Counted from the stretch's first letter, positions 25,032 to 27,992 are shown. The stretch: DNA of 32,000 nucleotides from Flavobacteriaceae bacterium (GCA_965224465.1 OZ245049.1:3120001-3152000); one strand, 5' to 3'. A program made the numbers and translations. Notes: generated by a model from the sequence alone, not told the origin.

Positions 25032-26516
25032 TTATTTTACAATCCTTCTAAGTTTACTTGTATTCTTAATTTTTGCATTAGCAACTCTTCCACTAGTTTT
25101 ATGTAAATAGTAATGAATTTCAATTGCTTTTCCATTAACTCTTCCATAATCAAAAACTTTAATCCATTTCCCAATTACATGAGTTTGCAATTTTGAATTC
25201 ATATTTAAGTATTTACCTGCCTTCATCGCTACACTCTCAAAACCGGGAAACCTAGCCTGAATATTATTAGATACAGAAACTCCATTAGCTTTTCCTAATA
25301 TATTCGTACCTCTTGATCCATAAATTCCAGAACCATATAGTCCTAATTCTTTCTGGACTTGATAAACAGCCCCTATCTCTTGTTGCATCACTCCAGAAAT
25401 AACTTCATGGAAATCTTCCTTCTTTCCTGCATTTAATCTCGTTCTTAAGCTAGCACTAGGTAAAAAACCACTTAAACGATCCATCCGAGCAGGGTTATTT
25501 AAGATTTCTCTATCCCAAGAATCTAACGTATTCATGGTTATTCCGTCACTATCGTAAGCAAATGATAAGGTTGATGCATGCCCATACCCCCCATTTATAT
25601 CAAAGGTCGATGTAATTTCACTAAACTGTAGTCCGTAATTTTTATTTGGGTCACTTCCCATTCCGTCTCCTATAAAAACCCCCTTGAAGCCTCCGCCAGC
25701 CCAGCCCCAAAATCGTCCCCATTTGGTCTTCCAACCTCCGTCTGAATCTATCCCGTTTACAGGGTCGTTACCCATACCAATGTAAGGAGAACTATACTGC
25801 CCCATAGGATCTGTAGTCAACCACCTCCCTATTCTACTATCCCACAATCTCAACTGAAAAGCTTCCTTTCCAGTTTCAGGGTCTTTTTCTTGTCCTTGAA
25901 AGGCATATCTATACCCATTTGCATCCACCGTATTTCTATTAGGCATTGGCATCCCAAAAGGGTAATAGTCGGTAGAGGAACTAATATCTCCATTTTTAGT
26001 TACTACTGCCCGTACATTTCCTAAATGGTCGGTTAGTTGGTAGGCGGTGCTATTGTGTTGTTTAAAAAACACTCCTAAACGGCTGGCTCCGTATATGGGT
26101 AGTTCTATTTGTGTTTGGTTGTTGTAAATAGCCAATACGCTACCTGCGGCATCTCGGACATAGTATTGAGTGTTTGATAGCGAACCATGAGTGTCAAATA
26201 CTTCTTTACGTACTCTGTGACTTTTGTCGTTGAAAAATAACTTGAGTAAAGGTATGTTACTTTTTTTAATTTCTGTTACTAAGCCGCTTGCGTTGTATTT
26301 GTAAGAAATTCCTTCGCTATTGTTTTTTATGAGTTGACCTAAGCTATTGTAGACATAATTTCCTGCTGCTTGGTTTTTTAAGTCTTGTACGCCGGCATCA
26401 CCTACGGCATCGGTAACATGGTCTAATTGGTTGGGTTTTCCTGCTTTGTAACCCGATCGCGCGGATTTGAAATCCGTGCGCACCCGATTCACACAACTAG
26501 CCCATAAACAGCACAT
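25032..26516 (-). CDS. orphan rhs/YD-repeat C-terminal fragment 3 with variable domain CT3; open frame with start codon supplied by repeat B
   Basis: 494-aa uninterrupted ORF with YD repeats and RHS core (FFKQHNSTAYQLTDHLGNVRAV, YYPFGMPMPNR, LRLWDSRIGRWLTTDP, DSDGG). CT3 spans 25032-25733 (233 aa). The first ~22 codons, including the ATG, lie in repeat B and its hairpin. Confidence 0.7.
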   Translation of the reverse strand: MCCLWASCVNRVRTDFKSARSGYKAGKPNQLDHVTDAVGDAGVQDLKNQAAGNYVYNSLGQLIKNNSEGISYKYNASGLVTEIKKSNIPLLKLFFNDKSHRVRKEVFDTHGSLSNTQYYVRDAAGSVLAIYNNQTQIELPIYGASRLGVFFKQHNSTAYQLTDHLGNVRAVVTKNGDISSSTDYYPFGMPMPNRNTVDANGYRYAFQGQEKDPETGKEAFQLRLWDSRIGRWLTTDPMGQYSSPYIGMGNDPVNGIDSDGGWKTKWGRFWGWAGGGFKGVFIGDGMGSDPNKNYGLQFSEITSTFDINGGYGHASTLSFAYDSDGITMNTLDSWDREILNNPARMDRLSGFLPSASLRTRLNAGKKEDFHEVISGVMQQEIGAVYQVQKELGLYGSGIYGSRGTNILGKANGVSVSNNIQARFPGFESVAMKAGKYLNMNSKLQTHVIGKWIKVFDYGRVNGKAIEIHYYLHKTSGRVANAKIKNTSKLRRIVK

Positions 26517-26787
26517 AATTATGTTGTTGACGGTATTTTAACGTATTTATAATTACGTGTTTCTGTTCAACCGCGTAAGTACATCTACCCAGCCTACCGT
26601 AGTAATAGTTGTAAAGTAAGCCTCTTCTGTTTCTGTTGCTTTATATATTTGGTTGACATATTTCTTAGTTTACTATTATTTTTTACTTTTTTAAGCTTTG
26701 AGTGAGCAACCTTGCGTGATGCACTTTGTGGGCACGGATTGCAAATCCGCGCTATCACGTGGGGGGTATGTCCGCGCTATCGGGTTT
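26449..26787. repeat. island repeat family B, copy 1, with imperfect terminal inverted hairpin modules
   Basis: The left end, TAACCCGATCGCGCGGATTTGAAATCCGTGCGCACCCG, is inverted at the right end as GGGCACGGATTGCAAATCCGCGCTATC...TCCGCGCTATCGGGTT. The body is near-identical to 27233-27535. Confidence 0.85.
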
Positions 26788-27127
26788 TATTAATTGCTTT
26801 AGTTAATAGAATACTCTCGATACGCTCATCATTAAATTCGTATTTTGCCCCCAAAACTAAAAAGTAACAAATATTATCATTATCTACATATGATTTTTCA
26901 CAATTAATAATCTTAAAAAAATCCATCTTCTCAATATTCTCAAACCCTATAAGCTCATTTTCTACTTTTTTAATTGTAATTATACCGAAATCAAATAATG
27001 GTTTTAAAATCAAATAAATATATCTAACAGCTATTTTTTTTCCTTTAAAATACACAATGTCAACTAAAGGAACTTCCATGTCTATACATAAATCTAAAAT
27101 GAATAATTGATAATCTGATAGTTTCAT
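26777..27127 (-). CDS. putative orphan immunity protein 4
   Basis: 116-aa ORF starting 6 nt after the stop of a toxin-tail remnant. Its last two codons and stop lie inside the right end of repeat B copy 1. Confidence 0.45.
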   Translation of the reverse strand: MKLSDYQLFILDLCIDMEVPLVDIVYFKGKKIAVRYIYLILKPLFDFGIITIKKVENELIGFENIEKMDFFKIINCEKSYVDNDNICYFLVLGAKYEFNDERIESILLTKAINKTR

Positions 27128-27133
27128 AACTTA

Positions 27134-27232
27134 TTAGTTTAATGTAGGGTTTACTAATACAGGTATCCTTTCCCCATTAAAAAGCCTTACTCTTAAATAT
27201 GGCTCTTGTTTTATCAATGGTAAAGTTTTATT
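27134..27232 (-). pseudogene. remnant 3' tip of a toxin gene (about 32 codons)
   Basis: Open frame ...GNKTLPLIKQEPYLRVRLFNGERIPVLVNPTLN* with no start. It is cut upstream by repeat B copy 2. Confidence 0.4.
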
Positions 27233-27535
27233 ACCCGATTCACACGACTAGCCCATAAACAGCACATAATTATGTTGTTGACAGTATTTTAACGTATTTA
27301 TAATTACGTGTTTCTGTTCAACCGCGTAAGTACATCTACCCAGCCTACCGTAGTAATAGTTGTAAAGTAAGCCTCTTCTGTTTCTGTTGCTTTATATATT
27401 TGGTTGACATATTTCTTAGTTTACTATTATTTTTTACTTTTTTAAGCTTTGAGTGAGCAACCTTGCGTGATGCACTTTGTGGGCACGGATTGCAAATCCG
27501 CGCTATCACGTGGGGGGATGTCCGCGCTATCGGGC
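27233..27535. repeat. island repeat family B, copy 2 (lacks left hairpin)
   Basis: About 300 bp near-identical to 26482-26785. Confidence 0.9.
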
Positions 27536-27536
27536 T

Positions 27537-27698
27537 TCAATTTATTATAAAAAAAACTATTACAAATATTATTAAACAACCAACAATAAAATTATATTTT
27601 GAATGTTTTTCTTCAGCTTCAGAAAATTCACCTTTAAATCCTGAAATAGCCCAGAAAAAAAAAGCACCCAAAACTCCTATAAAATAGCCTGTAGTCAT
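27537..27698 (-). CDS. unlisted small ORF, 53 aa, two predicted TM helices (possible immunity protein 5)
   Basis: Hand translation gives MTTGYFIGVLGAFFFWAISGFKGEFSEAEEKHSKYNFIVGCLIIFVIVFFIIN*. It starts 10 nt after the stop at 27709, and its own stop is 2 nt from the end of repeat B. Confidence 0.4.
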   Translation of the reverse strand: MTTGYFIGVLGAFFFWAISGFKGEFSEAEEKHSKYNFIVGCLIIFVIVFFIIN

Positions 27699-27708
27699 TA
27701 CATTAATT

Positions 27709-27954
27709 TTAGTCATTAAAAAAATTAATTAAAAAAATCGCATCACCTGACTTTCCAGCAGCTTTAGCTGTCGATTTGTGAGTACTTACTTTTAAGTTAT
27801 GATTCTTTATCATTGTATTCAAGTTTTTTATTGCAATCTTATAGGCCTTTGCTCTTGCTTGACTATGTCCTACACTCATGAACTGGCCCTTTGTTGCTCT
27901 TGCAAAAATATTATATAGTTTTGGTGTAGATTTTACAGTTGTGTTCACCGCCTT
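27709..27954 (-). pseudogene. toxin-tail fragment CT5 (about 80 codons) downstream of solo hairpin module
   Basis: Open frame AVNTTVKSTPKLYNIFARATKGQFMSVGHSQARAKAYKIAIKNL...AIFLINFFND*. It is out of frame with the rhs remnant upstream. No family recognised. Confidence 0.35.
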
Positions 27955-27992
27955 TAACCCGATCGCGCGGATTTGAAATCCGTGCGCACCCG
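27955..27992. repeat. solo copy of 38-nt hairpin module (left end of repeat B)
   Basis: Identical to 26449-26486 (TAACCCGATCGCGCGGATTTGAAATCCGTGCGCACCCG). Confidence 0.9.

Follow-up and report, generated by a model that had tools for sequence, protein, structure and literature searches.

Repetitive extragenic palindromes (REPs) and REP doublets forming hairpins (REPINs) are thought to be mobilised in trans by REP-associated tyrosine transposases (RAYTs). Proteobacterial REPs co-evolve with their cognate tnpA-REP genes and diversify, while RAYTs of subclass 2.6 occur mostly in Bacteroidetes and are bordered by secondary structures of an atypical kind that have copies elsewhere in the genome; the reference motifs of this subclass are NH[LIV]H, WQ and YIH[QN]NP, in a protein of about 179 aa (PMC6006769). 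Here we describe a stretch of 32,000 nt from a Flavobacteriaceae bacterium (GCA_965224465.1, OZ245049.1:3120001-3152000; G+C about 33%), referred to as the window, in which two 300-bp repeats (the B bodies, B1 and B2) and several copies of a short hairpin, GCACGGATT(G/T)CAAATCCGCGC, lie in an array of orphan Rhs fragments. Sequence comparison makes it highly probable that the hairpin is the REP of a Bacteroidota RAYT and that the B bodies are decayed RAYT units (REPtrons) residing in the Rhs array. The element is of an ordinary, already described kind and is not a new recombination site. Loci retrieved from other genomes and contigs are given L numbers.

Hairpins and probable RAYT relics in the window

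The B bodies at 26482-26787 and 27233-27537 are identical at 302 of 306 positions (99%), with three substitutions and one indel between them. The 38-mer at the left end of B1 (26449-26486) recurs alone at 27955-27992 with 100% identity, and B1 has imperfect inverted ends, with 29-nt arms (26455-26483 and 26728-26756) that are 90% complementary. All three properties had been noted in a preliminary description of this DNA and hold, as does a diverged copy of the right module, placed there at about 28995-29022 and located here at 28982-29025 (77% identity). The solitary right module reported at 29136-29179 is indeed a 95% copy, but it is half a hairpin, lacking the 5′ arm and any stable fold. The features are as follows.

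26459-26479 (minus), 26732-26752 (plus), 27483-27503 (plus), 27965-27985 (minus): hairpin core GCACGGATTKCAAATCCGCGC
26449..26486, minus: 38-mer, predicted 3′ REP of the RAYT relic B1; hairpin 26458-26480, foot ACCCGAT 26451-26457 (REP profile E 6.9e-10; -10 kcal/mol)
26489..26659, minus: predicted RAYT coding relic of B1 (tblastn, three-frame translation, hhalign)
26660..26727, minus: putative RAYT upstream region of B1 (5′ untranslated region and promoter), aligning with the region from 5′ REP to ATG of intact RAYT units
26728..26787, plus: right module, predicted 5′ REP of B1; hairpin 26732-26752, then a duplicated half-REP/foot TCCGCGCTATCGGGTTT at 26771-26787
27233..27537, minus: B2, second relic copy; predicted coding relic 27240-27410, upstream region 27411-27478, 5′ REP 27479-27537 (hairpin 27483-27503)
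27955..27992, minus: solo REP, same as the 38-mer of B1 (REP profile E 6.9e-10; 100% identity)
28982..29025, plus: diverged copy of the double-foot partial module (77% identity)
29136..29179, plus: partial REP, hairpin 3′ arm and double foot (95% identity; half-REP matches at 29136-49 and 29163-76)

The four sites of GCACGGATTKCAAATCCGCGC, two per strand, are exact, and none was found in shuffled sequences. A profile made from 282 distinct REP copies external to the window detected four full REPs (E <= 7e-10) and four half-REPs, all within 26.45-29.18 kb, and gave no significant match elsewhere in the 32 kb. Folded as a DNA single strand, the hairpin has -10 kcal/mol (z -3.3) where the strand forms a G.T pair and a weaker -7.8 kcal/mol where the strand carries the A/C mismatch.

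DNA alignment to intact units showed that the B body contains, in order on the minus strand, a 5′ REP, the RAYT upstream region, the start codon and about 57 RAYT codons. The N-terminus of RAYT matched the window by tblastn at 26645-26562 (E 6e-10) and 27396-27220 (E 8e-11), with no other match. Three-frame translation of B1 reads MSTKY, a +2 frameshift, YKATETEEAYFTTITTVGWVDVLTRLNRN, a -1 frameshift, and VIINTLKYRQQHNYVLFMG followed by a stop; in the B copies the final segment is VIINTLKY(R/C)QQHNYVLFMG and then a stop, so that the gene is cut ahead of the catalytic HUH motif. The repaired relic peptide aligned by hhalign with columns 1-47 of the profile of ten intact RAYTs (A3, see below) at a probability of 99.5% (E 2.4e-23). 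The statement in the preliminary description that no matching transposase is present in the window is therefore incorrect, as the B body is the frameshifted and truncated cognate RAYT gene, present as a relic.

On these alignments, B1 is a predicted internally deleted RAYT unit closed by the 38-mer as its 3′ REP, and B2 the same relic without the 3′ hairpin. The 38-mer of B1 aligns with the downstream REP of L030, L032 and L097 and is oriented to the gene as are the 3′ REPs of intact RAYTs, and the gap of about 70 nt between REP and ATG in B1 is inside the range of other loci. The right module, which overlaps the final codons and the stop of the open reading frame (ORF) 26777-27127, has a double-foot layout that is also seen in L007/L094 and L052. 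At B2, the left end is the bare 7-nt foot ACCCGAT. The hairpin of B1 is bracketed by 7-nt direct repeats of ACCCGAT; the B2 hairpin could therefore have been lost by slippage between such repeats. Since B1 and B2 carry the same frameshifts and truncation but differ in the sequence next to them at either end, the relic was copied when already dead, either by trans-mobilisation or by REP-mediated recombination. Similar REP-bounded relics were found in L109 (Draconibacterium), L117 and L144.

RAYT genes flanked by the hairpin in Bacteroidota

A search of viral contigs with the hairpin core returned 20 loci. In two of them (L007 and L018), two right-module-like units lie inverted about 830 bp apart with a small gene between them; a gene of this type is intact in L030, L060 and L097, coding for a protein of 171-191 aa. 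Intact 184-aa RAYT genes between inverted copies of exactly this hairpin were found in L030, L032, L053, L094, L120, L134, L128, L091 and others, and flanking of a RAYT by the hairpin was seen in dozens of other genomes and metagenome contigs. The L030 protein generated hits on Y1_Tnp in Pfam (1.5e-10) and on NF047646, REP_Tyr_transpos, in NCBIfam (103 bits; cutoff 80). Its score against the IS200 model NF033573 was 27 bits, under the cutoff of 55, and an IS200/IS605 insertion sequence was rejected on this score. A sequence search of PDB with the RAYT gave marginal matches only.

In the A3 alignment, the two histidines of H-x-H (H60, H62), the tyrosine of YIHNNP (Y144) and the W of WQ are invariant. 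The motifs of these ten proteins (171-189 aa) read (S/N)H[LIV]H, WQ (WR in three members) and Y[IL]H[NQ]NP, with S oftener than N as the first residue of the HUH motif. The hosts are all Bacteroidota except for one doubtful metagenome-assembled genome (MAG). Because motifs, length and host range match, the family is assigned, from its sequence features, to subclass 2.6 of Quentin 2018, which is group 5 of Bertels 2017.

The geometry at RAYT genes is constant: one hairpin precedes the gene by 40-230 nt, and another, in the opposite orientation, follows it at 0-140 nt. As a guard against circularity, a second sample of 80 metagenome loci was picked by the RAYT protein alone. Among these loci, 28/68 had the hairpin upstream, 33/68 had it downstream and 18/56 had it on both sides, with the orientation fixed as in the genome loci, and it was concentrated at the RAYTs most similar to the query. 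The consensus of 322 REP copies is GG-CACGGATT[G/A]CAAATCCGCG-CYAKCGG, in which the unpaired tail is strongly conserved. The consensus GGCACGGATTGCAAATCCGCGCYAKCGG does not appear in the accessible parts of the texts of PMC6006769 and PMC5581495. A conserved second hairpin between the 5′ REP and the RAYT ATG was considered and rejected, the structures at this position being variable and terminator-like by eye across 41 loci.

REPs of this type also occur in groups: in Salinimicrobium nanhaiense nine copies are spaced by 89 nt or by multiples of this distance (L064 6100-6995), in Flavobacterium hungaricum at least eight lie in 600 nt (L092 1449-2032), and in a Bacteroidales MAG a RAYT has three REPs on either side (L134 185-1052). 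In L087, labelled as a Pseudanabaena sp. MAG, four REPs of the Bacteroidota type come after a C-terminal RAYT fragment; the contig is likely mis-binned in a cyanobacterial MAG.

The genome search with the hairpin returned at least 120 stretches across Bacteroidota. The matches listed include Flavobacterium, Salinimicrobium, Myroides, Elizabethkingia, Kaistella, Lutibacter, Aquimarina, Draconibacterium, Saccharicrinis, Prevotellaceae, Rikenellaceae, Tannerella, Bacteroides and others; among them, several genomes have more than one stretch and about 100 stretches carry no RAYT. From the same listed matches, 150 ORFs at most 300 nt from a hairpin were compared with Pfam. Y1_Tnp was the top and sole strongly recurrent neighbour family (12 of 150 ORFs), and no toxin or immunity family was among the top 25. 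The other neighbours include tRNA synthetase, the MetH activation domain, AnmK, ribulose-phosphate epimerase, MiaA, carbamoyl-phosphate synthase and GH92, among others. Taken as a repeat family, among these matches outside the source genome, the hairpin is thus a generic REP with no enrichment at toxin or immunity loci, an outcome that the preliminary description had named as contrary to its own proposal. The identical 21-nt REP core is present in Flavobacteriia, many Bacteroidia and a Chitinophaga MAG, which is unusually wide for a REP.

By analogy with RAYT and IS200/IS605 systems, the transposase would bind the REP hairpin on single-stranded DNA, here on the strand with the G.T stem pair, would read the short foot beside the stem, and would cleave and rejoin the DNA there; the outcome would be the spread of REPs and REP doublets through intergenic DNA.

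Several observations weigh against assigning the hairpin and the B bodies to a RAYT system. On the other strand the REP foot is GMTR (GATA, GCTG; GATC in the 38-mer), and the canonical GTAG is absent. Such a foot fits the label "atypical" used for subclass 2.6; it is compatible with a RAYT partner, but the hairpin is no canonical GTAG REP. The repaired 52-aa relic peptide alone matched no NCBIfam model at E <= 0.01. There is no intact RAYT in the 32-kb window; the copies in the window are therefore relics and, if still mobile, would depend on a RAYT elsewhere in the genome. The REPs in the window are all confined to 2.8 kb of the toxin array, with none beside housekeeping genes; clustering would account for this confinement, and so would a preference for this locus. 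To our knowledge, there is no experimental demonstration of cleavage or mobility for subclass 2.6.

The Rhs array and alternative explanations

An array of orphan Rhs C-terminal fragments with TIGR03696 matches occupies about 18.3-29.3 kb on the minus strand. The fragment next to B1 is:

25032..26516, minus: orphan Rhs C-terminal fragment (TIGR03696 Rhs_assc_core, 51 bits; translation IMCCLWASCVNRVRTDFKSARSGYKAGKPNQ...)

The ATG of this 494-aa ORF is located inside the RAYT relic of B1, and the frame continues across the REP hairpin (...CVNRVRTDFKSARSGY...) into Rhs. As read from this frame, the start codon of the orphan Rhs ORF appears to be supplied by the B1 relic, and its promoter possibly derives from the relic as well. 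One REP is at the 5′ truncation of the Rhs fragment, and others are directly 3′ of the stop codons of small ORFs (26777, 27537). Between the solo REP at 27955-27992 and the end of a 105-nt Rhs core remnant (about 27998-28114) there are 16 nt, and the REP's other side adjoins an unrelated open tail (27709-27954). The preliminary description had placed the hairpin exactly at the breakpoint, which this 16-nt distance contradicts. Its broader claim that the hairpin marks cassette borders holds for borders in the window, L030 and L052. An intact RAYT stands at the close of an Rhs array in L030 (Flavobacterium sp. CAU 1735), with REP clusters between successive toxin-tail/immunity cassettes, and in L052 (F. 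suncheonense) a double-foot REP stands ahead of each of three orphan Rhs cassettes; REPs form boundaries of orphan cassettes in at least three unrelated genomes. Two processes likely account for this placement: REPs settle in non-essential intergenic DNA, which is plentiful in an orphan Rhs array, and deletions and illegitimate recombination naturally end at repeated palindromes.

To count the co-location of RAYT and Rhs, 98 RAYT loci within L021-L220 were used. An Rhs core was found in 11 of them, in all 11 co-oriented with the RAYT. Nine of these cores are at most 4 kb upstream of the RAYT start (1.4-4 kb), and a tenth is at 4.0 kb; the positional excess over the flank sampled has a binomial p of 5e-4. 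L030 and L141 are probably from the same organism, as their RAYTs are 97% identical, leaving about ten independent Rhs cases. The literature searched contained nothing relevant on a link of RAYTs with Rhs or with polymorphic toxins, or on their residence in Rhs arrays. In the simplest reading, the co-location reflects passive build-up of mobile DNA in a dispensable and recombination-prone locus, and the co-orientation could arise from the alignment of both with replication. A real, non-random and mechanistic tie between the subclass 2.6 RAYT/REP and the Rhs toxin-immunity arrays of Flavobacteriia is distinctly unlikely. If it were true, REP hairpins or nicking by RAYT might make truncation or exchange points that yield orphan cassettes; alternatively, relics might maintain the expression of orphan immunity genes by giving them promoters and start codons. 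Placement beyond passive build-up would connect the way polymorphic toxins diversify with a "domesticated" transposase system.

The assignment of the B bodies to decayed RAYT units would be refined if B were an active element resembling a miniature inverted-repeat transposable element (MITE), namely an internally deleted REPtron that is trans-mobilised by a RAYT elsewhere and repeatedly enters the toxin array. Consistent with this, the two 99% identical copies have differing flanks and sharp ends at the REP feet ACCCGAT ... ATCGGGYTT, B1 has terminal inverted repeats (TIRs), and the shared frameshifts indicate that a dead unit was copied. Just two copies are known, however, with no left hairpin at B2 and no visible target-site duplication (TSD); viral contigs contained zero matches to the B-specific junction or to a 27-mer of the 38-mer variant; and recombination between REPs or inside the array gives the same picture. 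RAYT genes are also reported not to copy themselves (PMC5581495). We regard an active B as unlikely. Repeated targeting of this locus, as put forward in the preliminary description, gained no support; the co-occurrence of RAYT and Rhs core at about 10% is the sole hint of a special relation. The alternative in the same description, a recombination site, gained no support as a site specific to this locus. Dedicated toxin/immunity cassette recombination sites, attC-like and served by a site-specific recombinase encoded elsewhere, would agree with the modules at or near borders of unrelated coding segments in the window, L030 and L052, and with the enrichment of RAYT loci just downstream of Rhs cores. 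Yet the same hairpin flanks RAYTs and, among the matches listed, stands beside varied housekeeping genes phylum-wide in many Bacteroidota genomes; its constant partner is a Y1 HUH transposase, which is neither a tyrosine nor a serine recombinase; the Rhs breakpoint is off the REP; no integrase was found in the window; and a GTTRRRY-type core is lacking, since the module ends carry GTTAAAG and GTTACAA, neither of which matches it. The integron/attC reading was ruled out by sequence and distribution, and a recombination site of any such dedicated kind is very improbable.

The relics might instead have been co-opted, with the RAYT promoter and ATG in B expressing a downstream orphan cassette or immunity gene and the REPs stabilising RNA or insulating cassettes. 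The whole RAYT upstream region and ATG are kept in B, the frame of ORF 25032-26516 opens in B1 and runs on across the REP to the Rhs fragment, B2 is about 105 nt upstream of a 116-aa ORF in the same orientation, and REPs have been proposed to affect mRNA stability and termination (PMC3733652). On the other hand, a scan for sigma-70 promoters and terminators gave no excess over shuffles, with the sigma-70 model being unsuited to Bacteroidota, no T-run follows the hairpin on the coding strand, and the in-frame read-through is possibly due to chance. Co-option is accordingly judged quite improbable. A tRNA-derived or otherwise structured RNA, like the anticodon arm of tRNA-Cys (GCA loop), was suggested by the loop TTGCAAA on a 5-bp stem, and by viral contig L014, where at about 11523-11575 the 19-mer followed by GGTTCGATTCCGAT...CTCCA resembles by eye part of a tRNA-Cys-like gene, its anticodon arm and T-arm. 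ARAGORN found no tRNA in the window and did not call the L014 site, none of 359 hairpins was inside a called tRNA (0/359), Rfam gave no match in the window at the gathering threshold or at E <= 5, and the loop base varies (G, A or T). This origin is extremely improbable, and the REP probably resembles an anticodon arm by coincidence.

With the hairpin read as a RAYT-associated REP, the annotation of the locus changes: the 300-bp repeats become RAYT pseudogenes and the hairpins REPs, and to label them toxin-cassette recombination sites would be wrong. The analysis also provides a usable consensus and profile for the REP that accompanies Bacteroidota RAYTs, which has been poorly described; they would aid masking, annotation and the spotting of assembly breakpoints in toxin arrays.

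The Rhs array is flanked by an HD-domain gene (16943-18265) on one side and by a FAD monooxygenase gene (29816-30952) on the other; the closest relative of the latter has 64% identity, with none higher. Inside the array, a DDE transposase (DDE_5 / DDE_Tnp_1; 22088-23521, plus strand) is unrelated to the REP/RAYT. Two small adjacent ORFs on the minus strand, 28250-28540 and 28542-28790 (96 and 82 aa, 1-nt gap), have a toxin-antitoxin-like look and generated zero matches in Pfam or NCBIfam; the Pfam search of the small ORFs of the array likewise returned zero families. To the left of B2, a 33-codon open tail (27137-27232, minus; ...NKTLPLIKQEPYLRVRLFNGERIPVLVNPTLN and two stops) ends 3 nt ahead of the ATG of the 116-aa ORF, and appears to be what is left of a toxin gene that was cut at B2's left border. 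Rhs cassettes in the left half of the array are separated by another repeat family, A (about 345-380 bp, copies 97% identical):

18413-18757 and 20768-21145: repeat family A
28109-28157 and 29093-29237: pieces of repeat family A

Repeat A has its own palindrome, CTGCGAAGTCAGAGACTGTCGCAG, and a left end, CCCGATTAC..., similar to the REP foot; it seems to include a degenerate piece of Rhs core.

Comparison with known systems

In E. coli Rhs elements, transposase-related elements of the H-rpt/ISAs1 type are found downstream of core/tip/immunity cassettes. The present locus is similar in having transposase genes or relics embedded downstream of Rhs cassettes, but the E. coli elements belong to a DDE family and carry no REP-type hairpins, whereas the family here is Y1 HUH.

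B1 resembles a MITE in being short and effectively non-coding, in having imperfect inverted repeats at its ends and in being present in more than one copy. It differs in that the body is a transposase gene fragment, no TSD was seen and B2 lacks the left TIR, and the expected mobiliser would be an HUH single-strand transposase here and a DDE enzyme in MITEs. A MITE in the strict sense was rejected for the missing TSD, the restriction of TIRs to B1 and the RAYT gene fragment as body; of the non-autonomous, MITE-like element of the preliminary description, what stands is that the ends are REPs, which belong to such a class.

Classical GTAG REPs and bacterial interspersed mosaic elements of Enterobacteria and Pseudomonas, including those of E. 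coli TnpA-REP, share with the hairpin an imperfect palindrome, strand asymmetry and a short unpaired foot. They likewise occur as singles, inverted pairs and clusters in intergenic DNA and have a cognate single-domain Y1 transposase. The foot is GTAG there and GMTR here, where the stem is about 9 bp with a 3-nt loop, and the same 21-mer is found here across several classes of one phylum.

The closest likeness is to the REP-RAYT system of subclass 2.6 (group 5), the REPtron. The window differs from it in having two dead, truncated gene copies together with solo and half REPs. The common features are a Y1 HUH gene of about 180 aa with H-x-H, WQ and YIH[NQ]NP, a distribution mostly in Bacteroidota, "atypical" flanking structures without the GTAG foot, and the position of the gene between inverted short palindromes that are also scattered genome-wide, a geometry that B1 keeps.

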